Assembly (NCBI RefSeq): GCF_000981785.2
Contig: NZ_CP011304.1
Coordinates: forward strand, 2,970,001 to 3,002,000
DNA from: Microcystis aeruginosa NIES-2549
Lineage (GTDB): Bacteria; Cyanobacteriota; Cyanobacteriia; Cyanobacteriales; Microcystaceae
Direction: 5' to 3'
Length of the DNA: 32,000 nucleotides
Shown: in pieces, positions 11,901 to 31,202 of the stretch
How positions within the stretch are numbered: the stretch's first letter is position 1
How the letters are laid out: every line of letters starts with the position of its first letter
Made by a program: the position numbers and the translations under genes
Notes under the pieces: generated by a model
The model's database searches: none
The model's input: only the letters and a program-made list of their open reading frames with translations
What the model was told of the DNA's origin: nothing

Positions 11901-14900
11901 GGGGGGCAATGAGCCGTCAAAATTATATAAAACGGGAGACTTAGCCCGTTATTTACCCGATGGTAAAATCGAATATTTAGGACGCATTGACAATCAAGTA
12001 AAACTTCGCGGCTTCCGTATTGAATTAGGAGAAATTGAGGCCTTACTCAACCAAAATGAGGCGGTACAGTCTTCTTGTGTGATTGTTCGTGAAGATAATC
12101 TAGGGGATAAACGCTTAGTTGCTTACGTTGTACCGCAACCCGAAATCCACCTGACAATTAACGAAATACGGCAATTTTTGCGAGCAAAATTACCCGATTA
12201 TATGGTTCCTACTGCGTTTGTCCTTCTTGATACTTTCCCCTTAACTCCCAATGGCAAAATCGACCGCCGTGCTTTACCTGTTCCCGATTTACAGAGCCAA
12301 GGTGAATATATAGCCCCCCGTAATCCCATTGAAGAAAAAATGGCGCAGATTTGGGCTGAGGTACTGAAATTAGAACGAGTCAGTATTGAGGATAATTTCT
12401 TTGAATTAGGGGGACATTCTCTGTTGGCGACTCAAGTTATTTCTCGATTACAGGAAACCTTTGAGATTGTTGTTCCCTTGCGTTATCTGTTTGAATCCCC
12501 AACCATTGCTCAGTTAAGTGGGGTAATTTTAAAAGAACTGCAAACAGGTTTAGGGTCAAAGCTACCATCAATTGTCCCCGTTAATCGAGAGGAGGACATT
12601 CCCCTATCCTGGGCCCAGGAACGTCTCTGGTTTGTGAATCAATTAGAAGGAGAAAGTGGGGCTTATACTATTGATTTAACGATGCGTTTGCGCGGAAATC
12701 TCAATGTTAAAGCCTTAGAAAAAGCTTTCCAGGCAATTATTCAACGCCATGAACCCCTACGGACTCAATTTAAACTCAAAGATAACAAACCAATACAAGC
12801 GATCGATCCTAATGTAACCTTCACCTTACCAGTTGTTAATCTGCAAAACCTCAGTCATTCTGAGCAACAGGTAAAAAACCTGTTATTAGCAGCAGCATCC
12901 GAACCCTTTGATCTCGAATCAGGGTCAGTATTACGAGTCAAATTATGGCAAGTCAAGACAGAGGAATATGTACTATTATTAGCTATTCATCATATTGCGG
13001 CGGATGGTTGGTCATTAGGTGTTTTAGTTGACGAATTATCGGTCTATTATCGAAGTTTCTGCACCGGTACAAAAGCAGATTTACCTGATTTATCAATACA
13101 GTATGCTGACTTTGCCGTGTGGCAGCGTCAATGGTTAACTAATGAAGTATTAGACCGTCAATTAAGCTACTGGAAGCAACAATTAACCGGGGTTCCCCTA
13201 CTACACCAACTTCCCACAGACCGTCCCCGGCCAGCAATCCAAAGTTTTCGCGGTGGGACGGAGCGACTGCAACTAGATAGTCAACTAACGCAACAACTGA
13301 AAAAACTCAGTCAAGAGTCCGGTAGCACTCTCTTTATGACATTACTAGCGGGTTTTGCTGTGTTACTATCTCGTTATAGTCAACAAACAGATGTGGTAAT
13401 TGGTTCACCAATTGCTAACCGTAACCGCACCGAAATTGAAGGGTTAATTGGCTTTTTTGTCAATACTTTAGTGTTAAGATTTAATTTATCTCAAGACCCG
13501 ACCTTTGAAGATTTTCTCGCGCAAGTCAGACAAACTACTCAAAACGCTTACGACCATCAAGATTTACCCTTCGAGATGTTAGTCGAAAAATTACAAATTG
13601 AGCGTCATTTAGATCGTAATCCTTTAACACAGATAGTTTTTGCCCTTCAGAATGCTCCTAGTTCTCCCTGGGATTTACCCGGAGTAAACATTGAGGAGAT
13701 ACCATCAGGACTTGATTCAGTTAGGGTTGACTTAGAAGTTTACCTCTGGGATGCACCCGAAGGATTAGGCGGTTTTTGCTCTTATAACAGGGATTTATTT
13801 GATGCTGAAACTATTGTCCGTATGATGAATCATTTTACGACTTTGTTAGCGGCAATTGTGGAAAATCCCCGTCAATCATTAGCTTCACTACCCTTATTAA
13901 ACCCAGAGGAAGAGTATCAACTATTAGAGGAGTGGAATGAGACAAAAGCAGATTACTCCTATAACAAGTGTATTCATCAATTAATTGAGGAACAAGCAGC
14001 GCGTACCCCTGATGCAGTAGCAGTAGTCTTTGAAAATCAACAGTTGACCTATGCAGAATTAAATAGTCGGGCCAATCAACTAGCTCACTATTTACGCTCT
14101 TTAGGTGTAGAAACCGAGGTAATAGTCGGTTTATGTGTAGAGCGCTCTTTAGACATGATTGTGGCATTAATAGGCATCCTTAAAGCCGGTGCTGCCTATC
14201 TACCCCTTGACCCAGAATATCCTCAAGAACGCTTACAATTTATGTTAGAGGATAGTCAAGTACCCTTATTACTAACCCAAAGTTCACTGATTGATAAACT
14301 CCCAAATCATCAAGCTAAAGCTGTATTTTTAGCTGAAATTTGGACAGAAATTAAACCAATGAACTGGGATAATTTGACGGGGAAGGTAACAGCTTCTAAT
14401 TTAGCTAATGTGATTTATACTTCTGGTTCTACGGGTAAACCTAAAGGGGTGATGGTTGAACATCAAGGGTTATGTAACTTAGCTCTGGCGCAAATTCAGA
14501 CTTTTGCTGTGTCTTCTCAGAGTCGAGTGCTTCAGTTTGCTTCTTTTAGTTTTGATGCCTGTATTTGGGAAGTTTTGATGGCTTTGGGAGCAGGAGCGGC
14601 ACTTTATTTAGCAAGTAAAGACAATTTAATGCCCGGTTTACCCTTAATCAAGCAATTACGGGAGAATAAGATTACTCATATTACTCTACCGCCATCAGCT
14701 TTAGCGGTTCTGTCTTGGGAAAATCTTTCCTCTCTGCAAACTATTATTGTCGCCGGGGAAGCTTGTTCTCCTGAATTGGTGAAAAAATGGTCACAGGGAC
14801 GAAGTTTCTTTAATGGTTATGGACCCACAGAAGGAAGTGTTTGTGCAACGGTAGCTAAATGTACGCCTGTTGATGCAAAAATAACTATTGGTCGGCCAAT

Positions 14901-17067
14901 TCCTCATGTGCAGGTTTATATTTTAGACTCGCATTTACAACCGGTTCCTATCGGTGTACCGGGGGAATTACATATCGGAGGAGCAGGGGTAGCCAGAGGT
15001 TATTTGAATCGCCCAGAATTGACAGCAGAGAAATTTATCTATTTAGAAAACAAGGAACAGTTAAAAGGTAAACGTTTGTATAAAACAGGAGATTTAGCTC
15101 GTTATTTACCTGATGGAAAAATTGAATATCTGGGACGAATTGACAATCAGGTTAAAGTAAGGGGTTTCCGCCTTGAATTAGGGGAAATTGAAGCAGTTTT
15201 GAGCCAACATCCCCTAGTACAAGAAGCGGTTGTGATGGCTCGCGCTGATCAGGCAAGTGATCATGATTATGATCAGCTTAATACTAATTTGGTAGCCTAC
15301 TTAGTTCCGGCTCTCAAGGGTCAAGTATTGCCCGAACAGCTTGCTCAATGGCAGAGTGAATATGTTAGTGATTGGCAAAAGATTTACGAAGAATCCTACA
15401 GTAAACCCCAACCTCAAACCGATGACCCCACTTTTAATATTAGTGGTTGGAATAGTAGTTATACGCGACAAGCTATTCCCGCAGCAGAAATGCAGGAATG
15501 GGTTGATCAGACGGTGAGCCGAATTTTAGGAAATCAACCACCACAACGAGTGTTAGAAATTGGTTGCGGAAGTGGATTATTGCTATTCCGTGTGGCGAAA
15601 CATTGTCAGGAATATTGGGGAGCCGATTATTCCGCTGCTACTATTAATAACCTCGAACATTTATGTAGCACAATTGAGGGTTTAGAGGGCAAAGTAAGAT
15701 TATTACACCGAACAGCCGATGATTTTACCGGCATTCCCCAAGCTACTTTTGATCGAGTAGTAATTAACTCTGTGGTTCAGTATTTCCCTAGTGTCGACTA
15801 TCTATTACAAGTTATCGCAGGAGCAGTCAAGACGATTGCAGATCGGGGTAAGATTTTCTTAGGCGATATCCGTAGTTTGTCCTTACTAGAGCCTTACCAT
15901 GCCGCGGTACAGTTAGCTCGCACTGAAGCTAATAAAACCCTTGAAGAATGGCAAAAACAGGTGAATCAAAGTGTAGCTACCGAAGAAGAATTGTTAATTG
16001 AACCTCAGTTCTTTATCGCGCTTAAACAACGCTTTCCGCGAATTTCTTGGGTAGAAATTGCACCGAAACGGGGTCAGGCTGACAATGAGTTAACCCAATT
16101 CCGCTATGATGTTACTTTACATCTGGATACTGATGGGCAAAAAACGACAATTCCTTGGCTAAATTGGCAGCGGGAGCGGTTTTCTTTAGGGCAACTACAA
16201 GATAAACTAAAACTGGAACAACCAGAATATTTAGGTATCAGAGATGTCCCCAATCAACGAGTACAAAAGGCACTACAAATTTTAGACTGTTTAGAAAATC
16301 CTCCAGGGGTAAAAACGGTGGGAGAATTGCGGCAATTGTTAGCAAAAAATACCGGAATAGGGATTAATCCTGAGCAAATGTGGCAACTGGGAGAACAGTT
16401 AGGTTACACTGTTCATCTCAGTTGGTGGGAAGGTAGTCAAGATGGTTCTTTCGATGTGGTTTTCTGTCGCCAGAATGCCATCCTAGAACCGATAATAAGT
16501 AAAGTTGATCAACAACCATACCCCAATTTTTGGAATGATGAGACGATTATTCCCAAATCCTGGACTGATTATACGAATAATCCTCTATATGGAAAATTAG
16601 TCCAGAAGTTAGTGCCACAGGTGCGGGAATTTGTCCAACAAAAGCTACCTAGTTATATGGTTCCCCAGGCTTTTGTTTTGCTTAATACCCTACCCTTGAC
16701 TCCTAATGGTAAAGTAGATCGGCAGGCTTTGCCTACCCCCGATACAGCTACACGCAATTTAGCTACGGGATTTCTCGCACCTCGCACCCCGATTGAAACT
16801 CAAATGTCTCAAATTTGGAGTGAAGTTTTGGGAGTCGAACGTATTGGAATTAAGGATAATTTCTTTGAATTGGGAGGACATTCTTTGTTAGCAACTCAGG
16901 TTATCTCCCGTTCCCGCGATCTTTTCTCGGTGGAATTGTCTTTACAAAATTTGCTGGAATACCCAACTATCGCTAATTTAGCCCAAATCATCGAAGTTCT
17001 TACCGTTGCACCGGGAGAAACAGCTATGACTGAAAGCTTGGAAGATTATGAGGATGGTGAATTATAA
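2902..17067 (+). CDS. mcnB: Four-module NRPS (C-A-T)x3 + C-A(N-MT)-T, McnB-like cyanopeptolin synthetase
   Basis: 4721-aa ORF.
- Four HHxxxDGWS C-domain motifs at ~3313, 6571, 9775 and 12988.
- Four YTSGSTGxPKG A3 cores at ~4741, 8004, 11206 and 14413.
- Four FFE(L/I)GGHSLLA PCP motifs at ~5980, 9181, 12397 and 16861.
- By-eye specificity residues: A1 D-A-E-G-V-G-A-I-A (acidic position 239; closest to Arg-type codes as I recall them); A2 D-V-E-N-A-G-V-V-T (the code I remember for the Ahp-position module of mcn/oci/apd); A3 D-A-F-F-L-G-V-T-F (Ile); A4 D-A-W-T-I-A-G-V-C (Phe/Tyr type).
- The SAM motif VLEIGCGSGLL is embedded between A8 and A9 of module 4. Confidence 0.9.
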   Translation: MNFEELPLSYAQQRLWFLDQLEPNSPFYNISLALHLAGNLQVDVLEKSLQEIIQRHESLRTNFATIEGNPVQIIKPESNWQLTLVNGKDSPKYREEQEIKKWLEIHSHQPFDLANDSLIRVTLLKLSDTEHFLLICLHHIVSDGWSMGVFIEELTTLYNAYTKGLEPLLQELPIQYADFAIWQREYLQGEIRQNQLNYWQKQLAAAPALLHLPTDYPRPLQQSFQGDRIKCILSPELSQGLNKLSREKGVTLFMTLLTAFKVLLYRYTGQTDILVGTPIANRTRSELAGLIGFFVNTLVLRTDLARNPSFSELLKQVRETATDAYDHQDLPFEMLVEALQPERNMSYTPLFQVMFGLDNEIVDSIDLEGIKATRQPLEFKTSKFDLSLSIQVKEAGLTAIWEYNTDLFDKSTIERLSEHFVNLLTGIIANPEQVIGQLPLLTKSESNQLLFDWNQTKIDYKNDLCLHQLFEQQVKQNPQAIAVRLEDEFLTYDELNCKANQLAHYLQSLGVKSESLVGIFVERSLDMIIGILGILKAGGAYVPLDINYPKERITYILEDTQLSILLTQSQLLEQLPAFQGTTICLDQDWSTIAKQSTVNPLVAVEQHNLAYLIYTSGSTGQPKGVMIEHRSVVNYILTTIREYGITSEDQILQCSSICFDASVEEIFVSLLSGATLVLRTEEMLRSSEDFWQCCQKWQLTVLGIPTAYWHQLASELTPDTLPILSKIKLIVIGGEAIQPAKVQQWQTITGQYSPLPRLFNAYGPTEATIAATFSEFTSPTITNIPIGRPISNTQVYILDACLQPVPVGVAGELHIGGMGLARGYFNRPELTQEKFIPNSFEKDEVIPPTPLNKGGNEPSKLYKTGDLCRYLPDGNIEYLGRIDNQVKIRGFRIELGEIETVLSQHNAVKTAVVIAQEDETNQKRLVAYIIPKIEIISAPKEENSLNVTELRQFLKAKLPEYMIPSAFVILESLPLTPNGKIDHRALPAPEFQSQEQYIAPRNPIEEILSSIWAKVLKVAQVGIHDNFFELGGHSLLATQLISRIREAFQVEMPLRELFVAPTIAELSQEIKRLSEGEQLTELPILPRDKAAELPLSFAQTRLWFLAEFESNSSFYNIPLALRLEGTLNSEILIQSLEEICDRHEALRTNFITVDGIPTQVVQARNWTVTVVDLQHLSGSEKVIASQELAQNQAIQPFDLAREPLIRITLVVLSETEHLLLVCMHHIVSDGWSMGVFLQELTALYNAYIQGLSSPLNPLSIQYGDFTLWQRQWLQGEVLQQQLDYWQKQLAGAPALLSLPTDRPRPNQQSFAGGHLPFSLSLELTEKLTQLTQEQGVTLFMTLLTAYAVLLYRYTEQEDILIGTPIANRNRSELEGLIGFFVNTLVLRIDLSGKPNFNQLLGRVREMAMDAYAHQDLPFEMLVEVLQPERDLSHAPLFQVDFLLQNSPPSPLELTGLTATPLTTENETAKFDLTLAMENTGAELKGVWEYNTDLFDRSTIERLTGNFITLLEALVVNPQQPIFQLPLLTEVEAKELLKDWNATEKEYPLHQCIHHLFEEQAARTPAAVAVVFEGQELTYQELNIQANQLAHYLQSLGVNSEVLVGIYLERSLLVIVGLLAVLKAGGAYIPLDPDYPQQRLTYMAEDAQISLLLTQESLLDSLPVEDLGVIVLDKLAEKLTVQSPENPLSEVVPENLLCLLYTSGSTGKPKGVMLTHAALVNHSWGISEVFGLTESDRVLQFASFGFDVAAEEIFPTWLKGGTVVLRPGQMFPTLTDFADFIEQESLTVLNITPAYWHEWAIAVSQSLATVPSSLRVVAVGGDAVLPETVNIWRQMVGKRVECINVYGPTEASVTAIVHDLLDYQSEKINSVLIGRPIANTKAYILDQNLQPVPIGVKGELHLCGVRLARGYLNRPELTAEKFIDNPFANAAFNRLYKTGDLARYLPDGNIECFGRIDNQVKIRGFRIELGEIEAVLNQNIDVQTSCVIIREDTPGDKYLVAYIVAHYERIPMISELRQFLSSKLPLYMVPQAFVFLESLPLTTNRKVDRRALPAPDKIGNRRDQYVAPRNGIEEMLVQIWTEILKIEQVGIYDNFFEIGGHSLLATQLVSRIRSLFKIELPLRSLFAAATVAELAHLIGQLQQQNLTLTVPPILPRTKDTELPLSFAQQRLWFLDQLQPNSALYNIPMVLHFRGNLNQKALEQSLREICDRHEVLRTNFVTIDGQPTQIIQTTRETISVVDLQDLPIHEQEEKTEQLKQKQATQPFDLAKESLIRITLVVLSETEHLLLVCMHHIISDGWSIEVFIHELTTLYNAYVQNHPANLAPLPIQYADFAVWQKQWLQGDVLQSQLNYWQNQLTAAPPLLSLPTDHPRPAVQSFVGTQQEFSLSPKLSQALTELSRQQGVTLFMTLLAAFDALLYRYTGSSDILVGTPIANRNRGEIEGLIGFFVNTLVMRTDLSDNPSFSQLLTRVREVTMDAYAHQDLPFEMLVEALQPERDLSHTPLFQVAFVLQNTPKSEIGMTGLTVTDLPPENTTAKFDLTLAMVNTDDGLKGVWEYNTDLFESSTIERLSGHFLNLLGGIAANPQARISQLPLLTESETNQLLIEWNNTQVDYPEYKCIHQLFEEQVKRTPDAVAVVCSDQQLTYNELNCRANQLAHYLQKLVVKPDELVGICLERSLDMIVGLLAILKVGGAYVPIDPDYPQERISFMLQDTQVKIILTCESLQNSLPNHQTIVICLDKDWEQINQASPENLNSTVSADNLAYVIYTSGSTGIPKGVIVTHQAVNRLVLNTNYIQFTPDDRVVQASNIAFDAATFEIWGALLNGAKIVIIAKSVLLSPQELALSLKENRISVLFLTTALFNQLANLVPQAFSSLRCLLFGGEAVEPKWVQEVLEKGAPQRLLHVYGPTENTTFSSWYLVENVASTATTIPIGKAIANTQIYLLDKNLQPVPIGVVGELHIGGAGLAKGYLNRPQLTQEKFIPNPFEKDEVIPPTPLNKGGNEPSKLYKTGDLARYLPDGKIEYLGRIDNQVKLRGFRIELGEIEALLNQNEAVQSSCVIVREDNLGDKRLVAYVVPQPEIHLTINEIRQFLRAKLPDYMVPTAFVLLDTFPLTPNGKIDRRALPVPDLQSQGEYIAPRNPIEEKMAQIWAEVLKLERVSIEDNFFELGGHSLLATQVISRLQETFEIVVPLRYLFESPTIAQLSGVILKELQTGLGSKLPSIVPVNREEDIPLSWAQERLWFVNQLEGESGAYTIDLTMRLRGNLNVKALEKAFQAIIQRHEPLRTQFKLKDNKPIQAIDPNVTFTLPVVNLQNLSHSEQQVKNLLLAAASEPFDLESGSVLRVKLWQVKTEEYVLLLAIHHIAADGWSLGVLVDELSVYYRSFCTGTKADLPDLSIQYADFAVWQRQWLTNEVLDRQLSYWKQQLTGVPLLHQLPTDRPRPAIQSFRGGTERLQLDSQLTQQLKKLSQESGSTLFMTLLAGFAVLLSRYSQQTDVVIGSPIANRNRTEIEGLIGFFVNTLVLRFNLSQDPTFEDFLAQVRQTTQNAYDHQDLPFEMLVEKLQIERHLDRNPLTQIVFALQNAPSSPWDLPGVNIEEIPSGLDSVRVDLEVYLWDAPEGLGGFCSYNRDLFDAETIVRMMNHFTTLLAAIVENPRQSLASLPLLNPEEEYQLLEEWNETKADYSYNKCIHQLIEEQAARTPDAVAVVFENQQLTYAELNSRANQLAHYLRSLGVETEVIVGLCVERSLDMIVALIGILKAGAAYLPLDPEYPQERLQFMLEDSQVPLLLTQSSLIDKLPNHQAKAVFLAEIWTEIKPMNWDNLTGKVTASNLANVIYTSGSTGKPKGVMVEHQGLCNLALAQIQTFAVSSQSRVLQFASFSFDACIWEVLMALGAGAALYLASKDNLMPGLPLIKQLRENKITHITLPPSALAVLSWENLSSLQTIIVAGEACSPELVKKWSQGRSFFNGYGPTEGSVCATVAKCTPVDAKITIGRPIPHVQVYILDSHLQPVPIGVPGELHIGGAGVARGYLNRPELTAEKFIYLENKEQLKGKRLYKTGDLARYLPDGKIEYLGRIDNQVKVRGFRLELGEIEAVLSQHPLVQEAVVMARADQASDHDYDQLNTNLVAYLVPALKGQVLPEQLAQWQSEYVSDWQKIYEESYSKPQPQTDDPTFNISGWNSSYTRQAIPAAEMQEWVDQTVSRILGNQPPQRVLEIGCGSGLLLFRVAKHCQEYWGADYSAATINNLEHLCSTIEGLEGKVRLLHRTADDFTGIPQATFDRVVINSVVQYFPSVDYLLQVIAGAVKTIADRGKIFLGDIRSLSLLEPYHAAVQLARTEANKTLEEWQKQVNQSVATEEELLIEPQFFIALKQRFPRISWVEIAPKRGQADNELTQFRYDVTLHLDTDGQKTTIPWLNWQRERFSLGQLQDKLKLEQPEYLGIRDVPNQRVQKALQILDCLENPPGVKTVGELRQLLAKNTGIGINPEQMWQLGEQLGYTVHLSWWEGSQDGSFDVVFCRQNAILEPIISKVDQQPYPNFWNDETIIPKSWTDYTNNPLYGKLVQKLVPQVREFVQQKLPSYMVPQAFVLLNTLPLTPNGKVDRQALPTPDTATRNLATGFLAPRTPIETQMSQIWSEVLGVERIGIKDNFFELGGHSLLATQVISRSRDLFSVELSLQNLLEYPTIANLAQIIEVLTVAPGETAMTESLEDYEDGEL
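5422..5481 (+). repeat. 60-bp in-frame cassette, copy 2 (McnB-like A1)
   Basis: Nucleotide-identical to 2168-2227 and in the same A6-A7 loop position. Confidence 0.9.
10756..11862 (+). repeat. Near-identical A-domain segment, copy 1 (McnB-like module 3)
   Basis: Aligns colinearly with 18835-19941 at an offset of 8079. I count 5 differences across 10831-11862 (1032 nt) and 6 across 10756-10830. Confidence 0.95.
11863..11922 (+). repeat. 60-bp in-frame cassette, copy 3 (McnB-like A3)
   Basis: Nucleotide-identical to 2168-2227 and in the same A6-A7 loop position. The otherwise near-identical A domain in McnC-like has FSNYPDSR here instead. Confidence 0.9.
15250..16620 (+). other. N-methyltransferase domain inserted in the fourth A domain of McnB-like protein (approximate bounds)
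   Basis: About 450 extra residues lie between GRIDNQVKVRGFRLELGEIE (A8) and LPSYMVPQAFVLLNTLPLTPNGKVDRQAL (A9/A10). They contain VLEIGCGSGLLLF (SAM motif I, ~15550-15588). This placement is typical of NRPS N-MT domains. Confidence 0.85.
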
Positions 17068-17232: not shown

Positions 17233-17400
17233 GTGAAAGTAGGAGATTTTTTAGCGTATTTGAAGGGTTTAGAGATTAAACTATGGCTGGAAGGCGAAAA
17301 ACTTCGTTTTCAGGCTCCCAAAGGGGTTATGACCCCAGAAATTAAAGAAGAAATCGCCGCCAAAAAACCTGAAATTTTGGACTTTTTAAGAGCGGCAAAA
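17233..17400 (+). other. TubC-N-like beta-hairpin docking domain at N-terminus of the terminal module
   Basis: The sequence (M)KVGDFLAYLKGLEIKLWLEGEKLRFQAPKGVMTPEIKEEIAAKKPEILDFL matches the LWxEGxxLRxxAPxGxxTPExxxxxxxxKxEIL pattern of NRPS N-terminal docking domains. It precedes the C domain. Confidence 0.7.
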
Positions 17401-20400
17401 ATCCCAACTAATACTGTTGATTTAGAGATTATTCCCGTGTCACGGGATCAGGATTTACCCCTCTCTTTTGCTCAACAGCGACTCTGGTTTTTACACCAAC
17501 TTTCCCCCGATAGTCATTCCTATAATCTGTTGGACGCTTTACGGTTAGAAGGCTCCCTCAATCTGTTGGCTTTAGAACAAAGTCTCAGCGAACTAATTCG
17601 CCGTCATGAAATTTTAAGAACCACTTTTCCCATGATTGAAGGGCAACCAATTCAGCGCATTGCTCCCCCTTCCCCCGTCAGTTTACCCCTAGAAGATTTA
17701 CAAAATTTATCAAAGAATGAACAGACAGAACATTTGCAAGAAATAGCGATTGCTTTCTCCTTAAAACCCTTTAATCTAGCCAAGGAATCCTTAGTCCAAT
17801 TTAAGTTACTTAAACTCAGTTCCCAAGAGTATGTATTGCTGTTGAAGATGCACCATATTATTTACGATGGTTGGTCTTTGAGCATCTTCTTTGATGAATT
17901 ATCGCAACTTTATGCGGCCTTTGTCCGGGGGTTGCCTTCCCCTCTCGCTAAATTATCGATTCAATACGCCGATTTTGCCGTATGGCAACGTCAATGGCTC
18001 ACCGGTGAAGTCTTGGAACGTCAACTTAATTACTGGCAAAAACAGTTACAAGATGCACCTACTATTTTAGAATTGCCGACGGATTATCCCCGTCCTCCAA
18101 TTCCTAGTTTCCGGGGTGATGGGCAGGTTTTTCGCCTGAATCAAGACTTAACGCAACGCCTCAAAAGGTTAAGTCAAGAGTCAGGAGCAACGCTATTTAT
18201 GACTTTACTGGCGGCTTTTTTTGTCCTAATTTCTCGTTATAGTGGTCAATTAGATGTGTTGGTGGGTTCTCCCATCGCTAATCGTAATAGTTCGGCAATT
18301 GAGAAATTAATGGGCTTTTTTGCCAATACTTTGGCTTTAAGGGGTGATATGTCGGGAAATCCGAGTTTTCTGGAGTTATTAGAACGAGTAAAGCAAACAA
18401 CTTTATCAGCTTATGCTCATCAAGATTTGCCTTTTGAAATGTTAGTAGAAAAATTACAATTAAACCGCGATTTAAGTCACAATCCTTTGATACAGGTAAT
18501 GTTCTCACTGCAAAATACTCCCCAATCTGAGGCCAGTTTATCTGGCTTAAAGATGGAGAGTTTGCCTTTATCTGTTGAGCTTAAAGCGCGATTTGATTTA
18601 GAGGTAAATTTTTGGGAAGTTTCTGATCGTTTAGAAGCGGTTTGGTGTTATAGTACGGATTTGTTTGCTGCCCCCACCATTAACCAAATGGGGCAACATT
18701 TTCAAAATCTCTTAACTGCGATTGCAGCTAATCCCAATATGGGAATTTTTGAGTTATCAATGTTAAGTGATGAAGAACGTTATCAATTGTTATCATTGTG
18801 GAACGAAACTCACACAGATTATCCCTCTGATAAATGTATTCATCAATTATTTGAAGAACAGGTAAAACGCACACCCGATGCGGTAGCAGTGGTATGTTCA
18901 GAGCAAAAATTAACCTACAATGAATTAAATTATCGTGCTAATCAATTAGCTCATTACCTGCAAAAATTAGTAGTAAAACCAGATGAATTAGTGGGGATTT
19001 GTCTAGAGCGTTCCTTAGACATGATTGTGGGATTATTGGCTATTCTTAAAGTCGGTGGAGCTTATGTTCCTATTGACCCAGATTATCCCCAAGAACGCAT
19101 TAGCTTCATGCTCCAAGATACCCAAGTTAAAATAATATTAACCTGCGAATCTTTACAGAATTCCTTGCCAAATCATCAGACTATTGTTATCTGTTTAGAC
19201 AAAGATTGGGAACAAATTAATCAGGCAAGTCAGGAGAATCTGAACAGCACAGTTTCTGCGGATAATTTAGCCTACGTTATTTATACTTCTGGTTCTACAG
19301 GAATACCCAAGGGTGTTATCGTCACTCATCAAGCAGTTAATCGACTGGTATTAAATACTAATTACATCCAGTTTACTCCTGATGACCGCGTTGTTCAAGC
19401 GTCTAATATTGCTTTTGATGCCGCTACTTTTGAAATTTGGGGGGCTTTACTTAACGGTGCTAAGATTATTATTATCGCTAAATCAGTTTTGCTCTCACCC
19501 CAAGAATTGGCACTAAGCTTAAAGGAAAATCGGATTAGTGTCTTATTTTTAACCACAGCACTTTTTAATCAGTTAGCCAATTTAGTTCCGCAAGCTTTTA
19601 GTAGCTTACGCTGCTTACTATTTGGGGGTGAAGCAGTTGAACCAAAATGGGTACAAGAGGTACTAGAAAAAGGTGCGCCACAACGGTTGCTTCATGTCTA
19701 TGGTCCAACGGAAAATACAACGTTTTCTTCTTGGTATTTAGTGGAAAACGTAGCTTCTACAGCCACAACTATTCCCATTGGCAAAGCGATTGCCAATACC
19801 CAAATCTATTTGCTGGATAAAAATCTCCAACCTGTCCCGATTGGTGTAGTAGGAGAATTACATATTGGTGGCGCAGGATTAGCCAAAGGTTATCTCAATC
19901 GTCCCCAATTAACCCAAGAAAAATTTATTCCTAATCCTTTTAGTAATTACCCAGATTCCCGTCTCTATAAAACGGGAGACTTAGCGCGTTATTTACCCGA
20001 TGGTAATATTGAATATGTAGGACGGATTGACAATCAAGTAAAAATTCGCGGCTTCCGTATTGAATTGGGAGAAATTGAGGCTGTACTTAGTCAAAATCAG
20101 GCGGTACAGTCTTCTTGTGTGATTGTTCGTGAAGACAATCCGGGGGAAAAACAGTTAGTTGCCTATATTGTACCTAAGCTAGGAGTAAAGCTAACAAGTG
20201 GCGATTTGCGTCAATTTCTTAGCCATAAATTGCCCGGTTATATGGTTCCGGGTGCTTTTGTGATGCTGGAGTTTTTCCCTTTAACAGCTAACGGAAAAAT
20301 TGATCGCCGTGCGTTAAAAGCTCCTAGTAACCCCAGTGATTCAGACAGATTTATTGAAGCGCGTAATCAGTTAGAATTAAACCTAGTACAAATCTGGTCA

Positions 20401-21450
20401 AAAGTGCTAAAAATTGACAAAGTTAGCGTGCATGATAACTTTTTTGACCTCGGTGGCCATTCCCTTTTAGCTCCTTATTTAATCACCCAAATTAAAGAAC
20501 AGTTAGGCAAGGAAATTGCCGTAACAACACTGTTTCAAAACCCAACTATTGAACAGTTAGCGACCATTATCCAAACCGATGCAGATTCCTCTAACCAGTC
20601 TTGTTTGGTTCCCATTCAACCCCAGGGTTCAAAGCCTCCTTTCTTCTGTGTTCCAGGCGCCGGAGGACGACCATTTTATTTTTACCATTTAGGACGTTAT
20701 TTAGGAAAAGATCAACCTTTCTACAGTTTTGAAAATGATCTCTATCAACAGTTTGGAGAAATCACTCGCATTGAGGATATAGCCAGTATTTATCTTAAAG
20801 CCATGCAGGATTTACAACCCCAAGGACCCTACTTTTTGGGAGGACATTCCTACGGTGGTAATGTGGCTTTTGAAATGGCTCAACAGTTGGTTAATCAGGG
20901 TGAACAAGTGGCATTACTAGCAATCATTGATTCTTCAGCACCCACTTATAAAGACAAACAAATTTTGCTTGATTATATTAATTGGGATCATGCGCGATGG
21001 TTAGCTGAAGTCAGCAAAGGTATCGAAGTTTATTTAGATAAAACCATCGATATTTCCTATGAAACTCTTCAACTCTTAACAGTGGAGGAACAATTAAAAT
21101 ACGCCTTAAACTTTTTTAAACTGGCTAATATGCTTCCTCCCAATGCGGAAACTAGACAGCTTGAAAAAATTGTCCAAGCCTATAAAACTAGCTGTTTATG
21201 TCTGATTGATTATCTCCCTAAACAGACTTATCCGGGTAAAATTACGATTATACGGGCCAGTGAGGAATTATCTGATGATCCAAATAAAGATTTAATAGCT
21301 GGAGATTGCGAGGATTCCTCTTTAGGCTGGAGTGAATTTTCTACAGAGCCAGTTGAGATTCATTTCGTCCTAGGAAATCATGTCTCGATTATGGTGGAAC
21401 CCCATGTCCAGATTTTAGCCGAAGAGTTAAAAGTTTGCCTTGAGATTTGA
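17233..21450 (+). CDS. mcnC: Terminal NRPS module: N-terminal docking domain-C-A(Ile)-T-TE, McnC-like
   Basis: GTG start at 17233, with GGAGG 10 nt upstream. Motifs: HHIIYDGWS (~17848), YTSGSTGIPKG (~19285), FFDLGGHSLLA (~20440), thioesterase GGHSYGG (~20838-20858). By-eye A-domain code D-A-F-F-L-G-V-T-F (Ile). Confidence 0.9.
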   Translation: MKVGDFLAYLKGLEIKLWLEGEKLRFQAPKGVMTPEIKEEIAAKKPEILDFLRAAKIPTNTVDLEIIPVSRDQDLPLSFAQQRLWFLHQLSPDSHSYNLLDALRLEGSLNLLALEQSLSELIRRHEILRTTFPMIEGQPIQRIAPPSPVSLPLEDLQNLSKNEQTEHLQEIAIAFSLKPFNLAKESLVQFKLLKLSSQEYVLLLKMHHIIYDGWSLSIFFDELSQLYAAFVRGLPSPLAKLSIQYADFAVWQRQWLTGEVLERQLNYWQKQLQDAPTILELPTDYPRPPIPSFRGDGQVFRLNQDLTQRLKRLSQESGATLFMTLLAAFFVLISRYSGQLDVLVGSPIANRNSSAIEKLMGFFANTLALRGDMSGNPSFLELLERVKQTTLSAYAHQDLPFEMLVEKLQLNRDLSHNPLIQVMFSLQNTPQSEASLSGLKMESLPLSVELKARFDLEVNFWEVSDRLEAVWCYSTDLFAAPTINQMGQHFQNLLTAIAANPNMGIFELSMLSDEERYQLLSLWNETHTDYPSDKCIHQLFEEQVKRTPDAVAVVCSEQKLTYNELNYRANQLAHYLQKLVVKPDELVGICLERSLDMIVGLLAILKVGGAYVPIDPDYPQERISFMLQDTQVKIILTCESLQNSLPNHQTIVICLDKDWEQINQASQENLNSTVSADNLAYVIYTSGSTGIPKGVIVTHQAVNRLVLNTNYIQFTPDDRVVQASNIAFDAATFEIWGALLNGAKIIIIAKSVLLSPQELALSLKENRISVLFLTTALFNQLANLVPQAFSSLRCLLFGGEAVEPKWVQEVLEKGAPQRLLHVYGPTENTTFSSWYLVENVASTATTIPIGKAIANTQIYLLDKNLQPVPIGVVGELHIGGAGLAKGYLNRPQLTQEKFIPNPFSNYPDSRLYKTGDLARYLPDGNIEYVGRIDNQVKIRGFRIELGEIEAVLSQNQAVQSSCVIVREDNPGEKQLVAYIVPKLGVKLTSGDLRQFLSHKLPGYMVPGAFVMLEFFPLTANGKIDRRALKAPSNPSDSDRFIEARNQLELNLVQIWSKVLKIDKVSVHDNFFDLGGHSLLAPYLITQIKEQLGKEIAVTTLFQNPTIEQLATIIQTDADSSNQSCLVPIQPQGSKPPFFCVPGAGGRPFYFYHLGRYLGKDQPFYSFENDLYQQFGEITRIEDIASIYLKAMQDLQPQGPYFLGGHSYGGNVAFEMAQQLVNQGEQVALLAIIDSSAPTYKDKQILLDYINWDHARWLAEVSKGIEVYLDKTIDISYETLQLLTVEEQLKYALNFFKLANMLPPNAETRQLEKIVQAYKTSCLCLIDYLPKQTYPGKITIIRASEELSDDPNKDLIAGDCEDSSLGWSEFSTEPVEIHFVLGNHVSIMVEPHVQILAEELKVCLEI
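18835..19941 (+). repeat. Near-identical A-domain segment, copy 2 (McnC-like)
   Basis: See 10756-11862. Identity drops sharply upstream, in the C domain/linker. Downstream it ends exactly at the A6-A7 loop. Confidence 0.95.
20600..21447 (+). other. Type I thioesterase (macrocyclising release) domain, approximate bounds
   Basis: FFCVPGAGGRPFYFYHLG, then the GGHSYGG nucleophile elbow, then a C-terminal GNHVSIM histidine region, all after the last PCP. Confidence 0.85.
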
Positions 21451-21714: not shown

Positions 21715-21831
21715 GCTGCAAGGCATCTGATTGCTAGACAGCCGATTTGTATTCTTTTGCCTTACCATGGATTTTATATGACTGAAATCCCGACCAACCA
21801 ATCCAACTTAGTGATTTTAGGAGTCTCATCA

Positions 21832-22311
21832 ATGACGGAAACTACTGAAACGGCCATTCCCCATGATTTTCTCGAAATTAATCCCACAGACATCAACAAA
21901 AAACTTGTCTCCTGGGGAATTTCTCTGGATGAAGTTGTTCAAAAACTTGCATCTCTTGGACTCCCCGGCATTATTTTCATTATTGCTGTTGCCGCATCCG
22001 GTGGTACTGCCTATCCTGCGATTTACGCACTTTTTGGGTTAGGCGGTCCGCTGGGACTAATTGGTGGACTTGGGGTCTTAGGCATCTCTACCATTATTGG
22101 TGACATTGTTACGCGTTATGGCATTGAGGCACTGCTTAAAACGGTCTATCTCAAACGTCGTGAAACAGAAACTCAAGAATATCTCATCAATGAGTTGGAA
22201 GGTTTACCAATTTCTCAAGTTCTAAAACTTAACCTGAAAAAGGCTATTGAAGTAGAAATTGCTGCCGAAGAACCCATTGCTCCCAAAGAAGTCGAAATTG
22301 CTGAAGAGTAG
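21832..22311 (+). CDS. Hypothetical membrane protein with glycine-zipper segment
   Basis: The ATG at 21832 is preceded by AGGAG (21819-21823) with an 8-nt spacer. The track ORF extends to a TTG at 21757, and another ATG lies at 21778. The central hydrophobic region GLPGIIFIIAVAASGGTAYPAIYALFGLGGPLGLIGGLGVLGISTIIG carries GxxxG repeats. The C-terminal tail is acidic. I do not recognise a family. Confidence 0.55.
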   Translation: MTETTETAIPHDFLEINPTDINKKLVSWGISLDEVVQKLASLGLPGIIFIIAVAASGGTAYPAIYALFGLGGPLGLIGGLGVLGISTIIGDIVTRYGIEALLKTVYLKRRETETQEYLINELEGLPISQVLKLNLKKAIEVEIAAEEPIAPKEVEIAEE

Positions 22312-22397
22312 TTTTAACTTGACTAAGCACTTTCTCCCTCCTCTCTCCTGCTGCCCTCACCGGCAAATTGACTTTTTCAGCAAACCCTAAATACAAC

Positions 22398-22450
22398 AAA
22401 AAACCGCCATAAATCTTACTCCTGCTTGACTTATGGCGGTGGTTGTTTTC
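22398..22450. terminator. Bidirectional intrinsic terminator between convergent genes
   Basis: 9-bp stem ccgccataa (22404-22412) / ttatggcgg (22431-22439). It is flanked by A6 on the plus strand (T6 on the minus strand, downstream of the small ORF) and by tggttgttttc on the plus side. Confidence 0.65.
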
Positions 22451-22483
22451 TGTGTGAATTACTGAAAGCAATCTTGAAATTAA

Positions 22484-22648
22484 TTAACTATCTTCCCAGT
22501 CAGAAGGCCATTTCCAAGTCCAAACGGGAGCCGGTTCAGAATCGGGGGGGGAATCGGGAGTCGGAGCCTCGTCTTGGTCCACAGATAAAAAACGAGCAAA
22601 GAAGGGTATTGCTTTACTTTGTTCGGTATTGGGATAATTCATGGTCAT
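22484..22648 (-). CDS. mdnA: Microviridin-type (omega-ester peptide/graspetide) precursor peptide, MdnA-like, stand-alone
   Basis: The reverse complement translates to MTMNYPNTEQSKAIPFFARFLSVDQDEAPTPDSPPDSEPAPVWTWKWPSDWEDS*. It carries the PFFARFL leader motif and the T-x-K-x-P-S-D-x-E-D core spacing. AGGA lies 7 nt upstream of the second ATG (22642), which is the likelier start. A terminator hairpin lies downstream. The ORF is not in the supplied track because it is too short. Confidence 0.8.
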   Translation of the reverse strand: MTMNYPNTEQSKAIPFFARFLSVDQDEAPTPDSPPDSEPAPVWTWKWPSDWEDS

Positions 22649-22702
22649 TCCTAGTTTTGAGTAGCAGCTTTTTCAAGATAGCTGCGATTACCTTGTGATA
22701 GT

Positions 22703-22731
22703 AACATATATTGCCGTCTTACTCAAGTCAA
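22703..22731 (-). promoter_or_regulatory. Candidate promoter for the MdnA-like ORF
   Basis: On the minus strand: TTGACT (22731-22726), a 17-nt spacer, then TATGTT (22708-22703), about 55 nt upstream of the ATG. Confidence 0.35.
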
Positions 22732-23061
22732 ATACTCACCTTACCCGCACTCCCATCGGTGACACTTATAGCTTTATTCAGGGTCATCAGGTACGCCAAT
22801 TTTCTTCCCTGTTCTCCGCTCCCCATTCCTAATTCAAAAGCGATAACTTCTGTCCCTCACCAGATATGATAATATAGATTGATGGTTATAGGTTAATTGA
22901 TAAAAACTTTTTTTACCATTAAATTGGGCTGTTAGTTGAACCTCTAAGGGAAATTTATCAGTATCTAAGGGAAAAGGTGTGGCTCCTTTTTTTTATATCG
23001 CCTCAGCCACGCGGTCAATATCTAGTGCCTTAACAGGAGTTTGGCAAGCATTGCTATAACC

Positions 23062-23149: not shown

Positions 23150-23938
23150 ATGGATAAAAATGAATGGATTGCTAGATTCGATGATTTAATTTGTAGTCCT
23201 TCGATTCGAGAGTTTTATGGTGAAAGAGAGTTTTTTAATGTCGGTTATTGGCTCTCCCATACCCAAGATCAACAGGAAGCATCCTCTACTCTGATGGAGA
23301 AACTTTTAGAATTTATTCCCAACAAACAGGGAACAATTCTTGATGTTGGCTGTGGTTTAGGAGCAACTACCCATTATCTTCTCAAATATTACCCATTGAT
23401 AGCAATTGTGGGGATTAACATTTCTCCGACACAAATTTCCAGAAGTCTCTTGAATTTTCCCGAGGGTAAATTTCTGTTAATGGACGCAGTAGAGATGGAT
23501 TTTGCCGATCATTCTTTTGAGCAAATTATTTGTGTAGAAGCGGCTTTTTATTTTAATACCAGGCGGCAATTCCTACAAGAAGCTTGGCGAGTATTAAAGC
23601 CGGGGGGAACCTTAATTCTCTCAGATCTGAGTTTTGCCACAACGGAACTTTTAGGTGATTGGACAGTTCCCCAAGCAAACACGGTCAAAGATATGGCAGA
23701 GTATCAAAATCTTTATCAACAGGCAGGGTTTAAAGATGTTCAATTTGTCGAGGTGACGGAGGAGTGCTGGTTCAGACATTTTCGCCATCTTAAGTCTTGG
23801 TTAACAGAGGAATTGCAATCGGGAAAATTAGACGAAGAAACCTATAATTTAAACATTAAGCCTCTGGATAATTTGCTAAGTTCCTCGGCCATAACTTATT
23901 GGTTAGTTGCTGCCCAAAAGCCAGTAAATATACTGTAA
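23150..23938 (+). CDS. Class I SAM-dependent methyltransferase (natural-product type)
   Basis: Motif I ILDVGCGLGATT, post-I/II region LLMDAVEMDF, and LKPGGTLILSD. The N-terminal FFNVGYW resembles the xGYW motif of small-molecule O/N-methyltransferases. Confidence 0.8.
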   Translation: MDKNEWIARFDDLICSPSIREFYGEREFFNVGYWLSHTQDQQEASSTLMEKLLEFIPNKQGTILDVGCGLGATTHYLLKYYPLIAIVGINISPTQISRSLLNFPEGKFLLMDAVEMDFADHSFEQIICVEAAFYFNTRRQFLQEAWRVLKPGGTLILSDLSFATTELLGDWTVPQANTVKDMAEYQNLYQQAGFKDVQFVEVTEECWFRHFRHLKSWLTEELQSGKLDEETYNLNIKPLDNLLSSSAITYWLVAAQKPVNIL

Positions 23939-29547: not shown

Positions 29548-31131
29548 TTACAGAGTCCTCCCAGCACCGCACACCACCCGAAAACCGAAGTTGCCGGTGT
29601 CGTCGTCGCGGCGGTAGTAGTAGTAGCGGTAAGCAGAACGGCAGTAAGCGGGATTGAAGCACCAAGAACCGCCCCGCAGACACTTAAAGTGCTGAGAACG
29701 ATTATCATTATTGATAAGCCACGCCGATCCATCCTTTGGCGCTCCGATATAGTTATCGTGCCAATCGTCTTCGCACCATTCCCAAACATTGCCACTCATG
29801 TCATACAGTCCCCAAGCATTGGGGTTTTTCTGGCCCACAGGATGAGTTTTACCCCGAAAGAACCCCGAATTTCCGTCATACCAAGCGTAATTTCCTAATT
29901 GATTAGCATCATCACCGAAATAATAACGAGTAGTGGTCCCCGCACGACAAGCATATTCCCATTCCGCTTCCGTCGGTAGGCGATAGGTTTTCCCTGTTAT
30001 TTGACTCAATTTCTGACAAAAAGCTTGAGCATCGTTCCAACTAACATTTTCTACCGGATTTTGCGGATTATTTTTAAACCGAGAGGGATTGGTTCCCATT
30101 ACTGCTTGATATTGTGCCTGAGTCACAGGATATTTCCCAATCGCAAAACTGTTGACTTTAACTTGGTGTGAAGGCTTTTCATAATTGAAAGCATCAGAAT
30201 CACTGTCAGGAGATCCCATGAGAAATTCACCTGCTGGTAAGTTCACCATCTCTAGTGTTACTCGATTGGGTAGTTTTTCGGTAAATGGAGTAGGTGAAGC
30301 AATTAGGGGTATTGGTGAAACAGGCTTTTTGAGTGCTTGTAAGGCATTTAAAACCTGTTGTGCTGTCCATCTTTGTCTTCTATCTTTTTGCAAACACCCT
30401 TCAATAATCGGTTTAAACTCTTTCGGTAAACTGGGGATTTGTAGCTCACAATTTATCACCTTTACCATTAATTGATTATTGTCATTATTGAACTTATAGG
30501 GAAATTGATTAGTGGTCATTTGGATTAACATAATACCTAATGACCACAGATCCCAAGCTGAGGAAATATCACCCCTAAAGGCTTCGGGAGGCATATAAAT
30601 AATTGTACCGGTATTGTGGACTGTTTGAGTGTGGCTTTTGTTATTTAAGGTTCTAATTAAGCCAAAATCTGCTAACTTGTATTGTTGATTAACCTTGAGG
30701 ATATTACCCGGTTTTAAATCTCGATGGACTTTATTTTGTCGATGAAGATAATTTAAGCCCTGGGCGACTTGAGCAGTAATATTTTTAATCTCATCCGCTG
30801 ACAAACTGGCTTTGGCAATGTGATTTTCTAGGCTACCCTGTGCCAATTCCATCACTAAATAAAGCATTTCAGTATTGAGAAAAGTAAATTCCCCCACCGC
30901 ATAACTCTTAATTAAATTAGGATGTTCTAACTTTCTGGAATTTGTTAACTCAATTAATTTATCATCGCTACTTTCGGGGATAACTTTAATGGCAACTTCT
31001 TTGACCGATGTATTTCTGACCATTTCACTAGCATGAAATACACCACCAAAACCACCCGCACCGAGAAATTTATTAAGACGATAGGAGCCTATTTGTTGCC
31101 CTTCTAACATCTTCATCATTTGGTCTAGCAT
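29548..31131 (-). CDS. Ser/Thr protein kinase fused to a formylglycine-generating-enzyme (SUMF1/FGE-sulfatase) domain
   Basis: Kinase motifs: GAGGFGGV, VAIKVI, HRDLKPGNIL, DFG, PPE. C-terminal FGE-type motifs: GKYPVTQAQYQAVMG, NVSWNDAQAFC, YRLPTEAEWEYACRAG, GLYDMSGNVWEWCED, LRGGSW. The ATG at 31131 has AGGAG 8 nt upstream. The track ORF begins at a TTG at 31155. Confidence 0.88.
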   Translation of the reverse strand: MLDQMMKMLEGQQIGSYRLNKFLGAGGFGGVFHASEMVRNTSVKEVAIKVIPESSDDKLIELTNSRKLEHPNLIKSYAVGEFTFLNTEMLYLVMELAQGSLENHIAKASLSADEIKNITAQVAQGLNYLHRQNKVHRDLKPGNILKVNQQYKLADFGLIRTLNNKSHTQTVHNTGTIIYMPPEAFRGDISSAWDLWSLGIMLIQMTTNQFPYKFNNDNNQLMVKVINCELQIPSLPKEFKPIIEGCLQKDRRQRWTAQQVLNALQALKKPVSPIPLIASPTPFTEKLPNRVTLEMVNLPAGEFLMGSPDSDSDAFNYEKPSHQVKVNSFAIGKYPVTQAQYQAVMGTNPSRFKNNPQNPVENVSWNDAQAFCQKLSQITGKTYRLPTEAEWEYACRAGTTTRYYFGDDANQLGNYAWYDGNSGFFRGKTHPVGQKNPNAWGLYDMSGNVWEWCEDDWHDNYIGAPKDGSAWLINNDNRSQHFKCLRGGSWCFNPAYCRSAYRYYYYRRDDDTGNFGFRVVCGAGRTL

Positions 31132-31202
31132 AATAATAACTCCTGAATTAGCCAATTTTTACGTTCTGTAACTATCCTATTAAGTGGGTGGTTTTAACGA
31201 AG

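Follow-up and report, generated by a model that had tools for sequence, protein, structure and literature searches.

A probable second microviridin precursor gene in Microcystis aeruginosa

We analysed a 32,000-nucleotide stretch of the chromosome of Microcystis aeruginosa NIES-2549 (NZ_CP011304.1, positions 2,970,001 to 3,002,000; hereafter the window) and found that a small open reading frame (ORF) on its minus strand is probably a functional gene for a second, conserved-core microviridin-family precursor. The reverse complement of 22484-22648 translates to MTMNYPNTEQSKAIPFFARFLSVDQDEAPTPDSPPDSEPAPVWTWKWPSDWEDS*, 54 amino acids (aa) from the ATG at 22648, in exact agreement with a first-pass annotation of the same DNA. 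The 54-codon frame proposed there holds but its start has to be moved: the first ATG (22648) is ACG in several orthologues, and therefore the true start is the second ATG at 22642. The coding sequence, placed by translation, profile models and start conservation, thus encodes a 52-aa precursor (22484..22642, minus strand; MNYPN...VWTWKWPSDWEDS and stop), called the peptide below.

The first-pass annotation had proposed a profile search as a check on family membership, with the lack of any hit counting against it. The 54-aa product scored above the cut-off of both models searched, with 35.9 bits against Pfam PF12559 (Inhibitor_I10; cut-off 21, E=9e-9) and 35.7 bits against NCBIfam NF033738 (microviridin/marinostatin family tricyclic proteinase inhibitor; cut-off 26). 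The leader contains PFFARFLS at residues 13-20 of the 52-aa form, and PFFARFL is kept in all orthologues. Previous work showed that the PFFARFL leader helix is bound by MdnC with contacts to Arg17 and Ser20 (review PMC7823629); both residues are present in the peptide, in addition to the leader motif that had been pointed out before. The core of the 52-aa form, T42-W-K44-W-P-S47-D48-W-E50-D51-S52, keeps all ring-forming residues. A microviridin core requires TxKxPSD followed by acidic acceptors (PMC7823629), and the T-x-K-x-P-S-D-x-E-(D/E) spacing described earlier is present as T-x-K-x-P-S-D-x-E-D. Judged from its sequence, the peptide is a member of the microviridin family (group 1 graspetides).

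NCBI has exact matches to the 54-aa and 52-aa sequences from many Microcystis strains, among them NIES-298 (GBD54542.1), NIES-2481 (AOC53747.1) and NIES-2549 (AKE65340.1). RefSeq multispecies records call the peptide 'microviridin/marinostatin family tricyclic proteinase inhibitor'. In GenBank, an entry from 2014 (AHF21217.1, 'MdnA [uncultured Microcystis sp.]') differs from it at two residues, and supplementary file 12 of Makarova et al. 2022 (PMC8939145) counts the PCC 9432 copy (CCH94922.1) as a microviridin-group precursor. The RefSeq naming, the GenBank 'MdnA' entry and the 2022 graspetide catalogue all precede the first-pass annotation, which had implied an undiscovered gene; the peptide gene is a known sequence and a known kind of element, already annotated and catalogued. 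A full-text literature search for 'KWPSD' found no paper, and literature searches for 'second precursor' or 'mdnA2' returned nothing relevant. The MdnA-type interpretation itself stands as to family, leader and core, and goes too far as to novelty, inherent isolation and the uniqueness of a Trp-rich core.

Position of the gene in mdn clusters of related strains

We searched other assemblies for the peptide and for variants of it and so collected 56 loci (cited by L numbers). The scan of genome contigs used exact 8-residue patterns and recovered close relatives only, hence it is no census of canonical mdnA or ligase genes. The commonest order in Microcystis, between FtsW and DUF7219 genes, was mdnA, mdnB, mdnC, the peptide gene, a convergent gene for a 159-aa protein, and mdnD (GNAT) and mdnE (ABC) on the opposite strand (L017-L024, L026, L030, L053, L056). 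In a second arrangement, situated between a methyltransferase gene and nonribosomal peptide synthetase (NRPS) genes as in the window, the order was GNAT, mdnA, mdnB, mdnC, the peptide gene and the 159-aa gene (L001, L028), and Woronichinia CP073041.1 (L009) has ABC, GNAT, mdnA, mdnB, mdnC, the peptide gene and the 159-aa gene. The set mdnB, mdnC, peptide gene and 159-aa gene is found in Snowella L035, in Microcystis L032 and L034 and in the metagenome contigs L013-L016; no canonical mdnA was detectable beside these ligases by the PFFARFL motif, and the peptide is the only precursor adjoining mdnB-mdnC in them. Altogether the peptide gene lies directly after mdnC in L001, L009, L010, L013-L024, L026, L028, L030, L032, L034-L036, L053 and L056. 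Since this is its place in most relatives, the peptide gene belongs regularly to mdn clusters, as a second precursor gene that follows mdnC. The comparison of syntenic loci that had been recommended as a check therefore found the ORF conserved both in related strains and in other genera.

A more distant copy was found in a Nostocales metagenome-assembled genome (MAG) (L038, RDXV01000004.1, 9980-10132). Its core, IWTWKWPSDWEDM, is the same as that of the peptide and it scored 39.1 bits against PF12559, whereas its leader differs outside PFFARFL and it has no 159-aa neighbour. This copy is located between a suf operon with a HEAT-repeat gene and an MdnE-like ABC transporter gene, and no ATP-grasp ligase gene lies within 10 kb of it, an isolation that it shares with the peptide of the window.

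Deletion of the adjacent ligase genes and reciprocal decay

No intact ATP-grasp, GNAT or ABC gene was found in the 32-kb window by ORF list, Pfam or NCBIfam. The precursor therefore does not have the ligases MdnB/MvdC and MdnC/MvdD beside it, which concerns the organisation of the genes and not the peptide. The first-pass annotation was right that mdnB/mdnC, GNAT and ABC genes are missing as intact genes, but a 146-bp mdnB remnant had been overlooked (22874..23019, minus strand; nt 58-203 of mdnB, 97% identity to mdnB of L001, with an in-frame stop). The remnant sits in the spacer of 501 bp that separates the peptide gene from the methyltransferase gene, and is fused at 22874/22873 directly to the sequence that starts 35 bp after the mdnC stop in intact loci; the deletion beside the peptide gene therefore took mdnA and mdnC entirely and mdnB for the most part. 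The precursor is thus isolated in the window, as had been said, but it is not inherently a stand-alone gene, since it normally follows mdnC directly. L002, L006, L007 and L008 are colinear with the window across the spacer and so have the same mdnB scar, and in L003-L005, L033, L041 (NIES-298) and L042 the spacer is filled by a cyanovirin-type lectin gene (CVNH, cyanovirin-N homology).

The part that remained is a 1098-bp cassette (21776..22873, minus strand) of promoter-like element, peptide gene, terminator and 159-aa gene, which has the same left end in all Microcystis loci. Full-length matches of 93-100% occur in 29 Microcystis loci, and lectin-type loci start at cassette position 138, their homology beginning 5 bp upstream of the -35 box. 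Upstream of the promoter-like element the loci vary slightly in structure: at cassette position 104/105, L002 carries an insertion of 360 bp (9514-9873), and in L001, compared with the window, 44 bp are duplicated in tandem (9786-9829). The CVNH lectin gene adjoins mdn genes or the peptide gene at ~9489-9821 in L003-L005, L033, L041 and L042, at 7032-7355 in L032, at 6947-7273 in L050 and at 6039-6365 in L055; it occurs at both chromosomal mdn locations and replaces GNAT and mdnA in some strains.

An intact canonical mdn cluster is located at 3,169,039-3,189,191 of CP012375.1 (the M. aeruginosa NIES-2481 chromosome), with mdnA, mdnB, mdnC, mdnD and mdnE between FtsW and DUF7219. Over the 8.3 kb compared, the window and CP012375.1 are 100% identical, and it is on this identity that we speak of ligases in the same genome. 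The canonical MdnA variant of this cluster (P0058) has the core FGGTLKYPSDWEEY, its mdnB product (326 aa) scored 532.7 bits against TIGR04185 (cut-off 425), and its mdnC product (324 aa) scored 557.2 bits against TIGR04184 (cut-off 475). The peptide gene is at 2,990,789-2,990,947 of CP012375.1 (computed from ranges), about 186 kb from mdnC, so that the genome-wide look for an ATP-grasp pair suggested by the first-pass annotation ended with an intact MdnB and MdnC on one chromosome with the peptide gene. The NIES-2481 genome paper is ambiguous in its wording on a predicted microviridin cluster, and the canonical MdnA on CP012375.1 settled its presence.

The distant cluster has no cassette, and just after its mdnC there is a 28-bp remnant of the linker codons of the peptide. 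Similar remnants are found in other cassette-less clusters: 57 bp in Microcystis sp. T1-4, beginning in the FFARFL codons, 35 bp in L044, L046, L047, L048 and L052, and 32 bp in L050. With an mdnB scar in the window and a peptide-gene remnant in the distant cluster, the two mdn loci of the genome lost complementary parts (reciprocal decay), the enzymes and the canonical precursor being retained at one locus and the peptide and 159-aa genes at the other. The same split arrangement is present in GCA_002897275.1 (L005 plus L051). NIES-298, which is listed as a microviridin B producer, has an isolated copy of the peptide gene (L041). Locus L051 also has three tandem repeats of about 175 bp of the 5' end of mdnC before the intact mdnC (9513-10063), which make three 66-aa ATP-grasp fragments.

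Conservation of the core and of the expression signals

All intact copies from Microcystis, Woronichinia, Snowella and a Merismopediaceae MAG have the core (V/I)WT(W/L)KWPSDWEDS, while canonical mdnA cores vary from strain to strain (YGGTFKYPSDWEEY, RQTLKYPSDWEEI, MAVTRKYPSDWEEL, FGTTLKYPSDWEEY, TSTRKYPSDWEDF, YNVTLKYPSDWEEF, ANTYKYPSDWEDF). The first-pass annotation had described the core as atypical and Trp-rich. Its four Trp, Ser end and Asp acceptor are indeed there, but they are the conserved norm for this paralogue across several genera. The related claim that KWPSD replaces a near-invariant KYPSD had to be dropped, as KWPSD is present in canonical precursors of Microcystis L026, Woronichinia L009 and Aphanizomenon, and KFPSD in L010. 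Two tandem canonical mdnA genes lie at 5038-5399 of L026, with the cores RQTLKWPSDWEESF and RQTLKYPSDWEEL; KWPSD thus arises in canonical precursors too.

Among 16 distinct nucleotide alleles of the peptide gene there are 27 extra synonymous codon types versus 12 extra amino-acid types (5 versus 2 in the core), an excess that indicates, as read from the alleles, purifying selection on the peptide reading frame. The frame is open in 38/38 orthologous loci examined, and the 13 isolated Microcystis copies examined are all intact with the core unchanged, apart from L042 and L037.

An AGGA ribosome-binding site (22649..22652, minus strand) lies 6 nt upstream of the ATG at 22642 and is conserved in the Microcystis, Woronichinia and Snowella copies. 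A promoter-like element, TTGACT-17-TATGTT (22703..22731, minus strand), was placed by consensus scan and conservation and is identical in every Microcystis copy. Between the convergent peptide and 159-aa genes, RNA folding gave an intrinsic terminator with a 13-bp stem and a U-run (22397..22440, minus strand), which folds at -27.8 kcal/mol (z = -4.6; 0/200 shuffles as stable) and is conserved in orthologues. The ribosome-binding site, the hexamers and the hairpin with T-run named by the first-pass annotation are therefore all present and conserved, with a reservation about the promoter that is taken up below.

Proposed maturation and product

As there is no ligase in the window, maturation would have to take place in trans, which is feasible with an intact MdnB and MdnC encoded on the same chromosome at a distance of about 186 kb. 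By analogy with known microviridins, it is plausible that the peptide is matured in trans to a tricyclic, Trp-rich, probably chymotrypsin-directed inhibitor. Following the microviridin biochemistry summarised in PMC7823629, MdnC would bind the PFFARFL helix and form the Thr42-Asp48 lactone and then the Ser47-Glu50 lactone (52-aa numbering), MdnB would form the Lys44-Asp51 lactam, the leader would then be cut off by a protease, and MdnD may N-acetylate the new N-terminus. The product would be a tricyclic peptide close to VWTWKWPSDWEDS, and peptides from the core would end in ...WTWKWPSDWEDS with loss of three H2O. The computed monoisotopic mass of tricyclic VWTWKWPSDWEDS is 1666.720 Da, and that of its N-acetyl form 1708.731 Da, corresponding to [M+H]+ m/z 1667.73 and 1709.74; with one more Pro at the N-terminus, 1764.78 or 1806.79 is predicted. 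Protease specificity is set by the residue that stands between the ring Thr and Lys (PMC7823629), and with Trp at this position chymotrypsin-like serine proteases are predicted as the targets most likely to be inhibited. Microviridin LH1667 (1666.7) was considered as the product and rejected; LH1667 is Ac-YSTLKYPSDWEEY, and the match in mass is coincidental.

Alternative explanations

Several observations weigh against a functional second precursor. A frameshifted copy exists in M. panniformis FACHB-1757 (L042), the copies L037, P0011 and P0012 are truncated, and Microcystis sp. T1-4 has a remnant only, all of which makes the gene dispensable. The count of promoter-like sites in the region is not above that of shuffles, so the match to TTGACT-17-TATGTT taken by itself is at chance level. 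The spacing from Leu19 to the ring Thr is 23 residues, where canonical MdnA has 18-21; Asp serves as lactam acceptor, and the chain ends in Ser. The longer linker, the Asp acceptor or the Ser terminus could lower processing efficiency. A characterised product with this core is absent from the searchable literature, although the likeliest papers lie outside its reach. To our knowledge, heterologously expressed mdn clusters have been reported to give canonical microviridins only.

These points lead to the question whether the gene is a non-functional relic of a dismantled mdn cluster, on its way to a pseudogene and no longer expressed or processed. Only a 146-bp mdnB scar is left of the adjacent ligase genes, decayed copies occur elsewhere, some of them at ligase-less loci (L042, L037, P0011, P0012), and the searched literature reports no product, as would suit such a relic. 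However, with the exception of L042 and L037 the 13 isolated Microcystis copies examined are intact and unchanged in the core, synonymous changes exceed replacements, and the promoter-like element, ribosome-binding site and terminator are conserved. Moreover, the intact MdnB and MdnC of the genome could process the peptide, and the copy inside the other cluster has decayed, so that exactly one intact copy was kept in the genome. We therefore regard a relic as unlikely and prefer a functional precursor gene.

The constant neighbour of the peptide gene offers another explanation. The 159-aa gene (21832..22311, plus strand), convergent with the peptide gene, encodes a glycine-rich helical protein and adjoins the peptide gene in every Microcystis, Woronichinia, Snowella and Merismopediaceae locus. 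The protein has no Pfam or NCBIfam match. Among 1.84 billion representative proteins we found 259 homologues, which have a Gly/Pro-rich helical region in common; some are fused to AIG1-type GTPase, Mrr nuclease, endonuclease/phosphatase, nitrilase, ankyrin or helix-turn-helix domains, and a few have weak matches to C19orf12-like proteins (two homologues) or holin. The AlphaFold2 model of the 159-aa protein is all-helical with a mean pLDDT of 73.7, and a fold search with it against PDB gave no match at E<=0.001. Constant adjacency is the only link between this protein and the peptide.

It could be supposed that the peptide works with this membrane-type protein independently of any ATP-grasp ligase, as a signal that is left unmodified or processed in another way, or as partner of a membrane effector, and that its microviridin ancestry is merely historical. 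The two genes move as one cassette and stay adjacent in four genera and after ligase loss, the fusions to GTPase, Mrr nuclease, phosphatase-type nuclease and ankyrin domains recall modular conflict or signalling systems, and the core is nearly invariant, unlike the diversifying canonical cores. We nevertheless consider this improbable, because all leader-recognition and three-ring residues are conserved, which is hard to explain without ligase processing; in addition, the peptide is the sole precursor beside mdnB-mdnC in Snowella and L013-L016, the Nostocales copy with the same core lacks the 159-aa neighbour, and the 159-aa protein has neither a family match nor a fold match. Finally, there is the antisense 90-aa ORF (22426..22698, plus strand), which as the real gene would make the microviridin-like frame coincidental. 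No other ORF of 60 aa or more is listed here, and the first-pass annotation had likewise noted it as the only one in its ORF track. It is spurious and was ruled out as a gene with hardly any doubt left: stops interrupt it in all copies from Woronichinia and Snowella and in many from Microcystis, whereas the peptide frame stays open throughout and matches two curated models with E around 1e-8.

Beyond a functional second precursor, one might go further and see in the peptide a second and separate class of microviridin precursor, conserved since ancient times and aimed at a fixed, conserved target. This idea draws on the near-invariant core across genera including the Nostocales MAG, on the travel of the cassette with the 159-aa protein, and on the survival of the gene after ligase loss; we put it forward tentatively, and would sooner expect it to be wrong than right. 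If it were true, the target could be one protease of a grazer or parasite, or one of the cell's own proteases, in contrast with the arms-race diversification of the canonical microviridins, and the 159-aa protein would serve as the peptide's own partner, whether in export, immunity or regulation.

Other genes of the window

On one side of the cassette, Pfam domains define three NRPS genes on the plus strand: a partial first gene (8-2905), a middle gene with four modules and one embedded N-methyltransferase (2902-17067), and a last gene with a TubC-type docking domain followed by C-A-T-TE (17233..21450). The NRPS genes at 8-21450 fit a micropeptin/cyanopeptolin-type cluster, and a micropeptin cluster was reported in the NIES-2481 genome paper. 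On this fit, two serine-protease-inhibitor pathways would be adjacent here, the micropeptin-type NRPS and the microviridin-type peptide. Beyond the peptide gene lies the methyltransferase gene (23150-23938), followed by short-chain dehydrogenase, RNase HII and RNase E genes. A fusion of a Ser/Thr protein kinase domain with an FGE-sulfatase (formylglycine-generating enzyme-like) domain is encoded at 29548-31155 (minus strand).

Significance

Our finding adds genomic context but does not extend the known kinds of system. A second microviridin precursor, its Trp-rich core fixed, is carried by many Microcystis strains, and we found no described product for it. If the peptide is made, bloom-forming Microcystis would produce an additional protease inhibitor, probably directed at chymotrypsin, which may be missing from current metabolite inventories. 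The two mdn loci with complementary losses are a natural test of MdnB and MdnC acting on a precursor 186 kb away, and the 159-aa neighbour is a candidate accessory gene.

Comparison with known systems

The closest known relatives of the peptide are canonical MdnA of Microcystis and MvdE of Planktothrix, which are likewise about 50 aa long. They share with it the leader MxYPN...KA(L/I)PFFARFLS with Arg17 and Ser20 and the core scaffold T-x-K-x-P-S-D-W-E-(D/E)-x, belong to the same Pfam and NCBIfam families, and are normally found, as the peptide is, beside the same MdnB/MdnC ligases. The differences are in gene order, the peptide gene being downstream of mdnC whereas canonical mdnA is upstream of mdnB; in expression signals, as the peptide gene, unlike canonical mdnA, has its own promoter-like element and terminator; in the linker, which is Pro/Asp-rich and 2 residues longer than in canonical MdnA; and in the core, which has four Trp, a Ser terminus and Asp as lactam acceptor and is nearly invariant across genera, whereas canonical MdnA cores differ by strain. 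The precursor of microviridin L from M. aeruginosa NIES-843 (P0059, core YGGTFKYPSDWEDY), whose product is characterised, also ends in ...PSDWED-x, and thus the Asp acceptor of the peptide has a precedent. Microviridin L, however, carries KYPSD with Phe at the specificity position, ends in Tyr, and comes from the canonical first gene of its cluster.

Precursors of RiPPs (peptides made by the ribosome and then modified after translation) that are scattered in the genome and processed in trans are known from the prochlorosins and their enzyme ProcM. The peptide resembles them in that a precursor with a cognate leader is encoded far from its modifying enzymes. Unlike the prochlorosins, it is a single peptide and not a large, diversified family, its processing in trans is a prediction, and its separation from the ligases is secondary, having arisen from reciprocal deletions in two paralogous loci.

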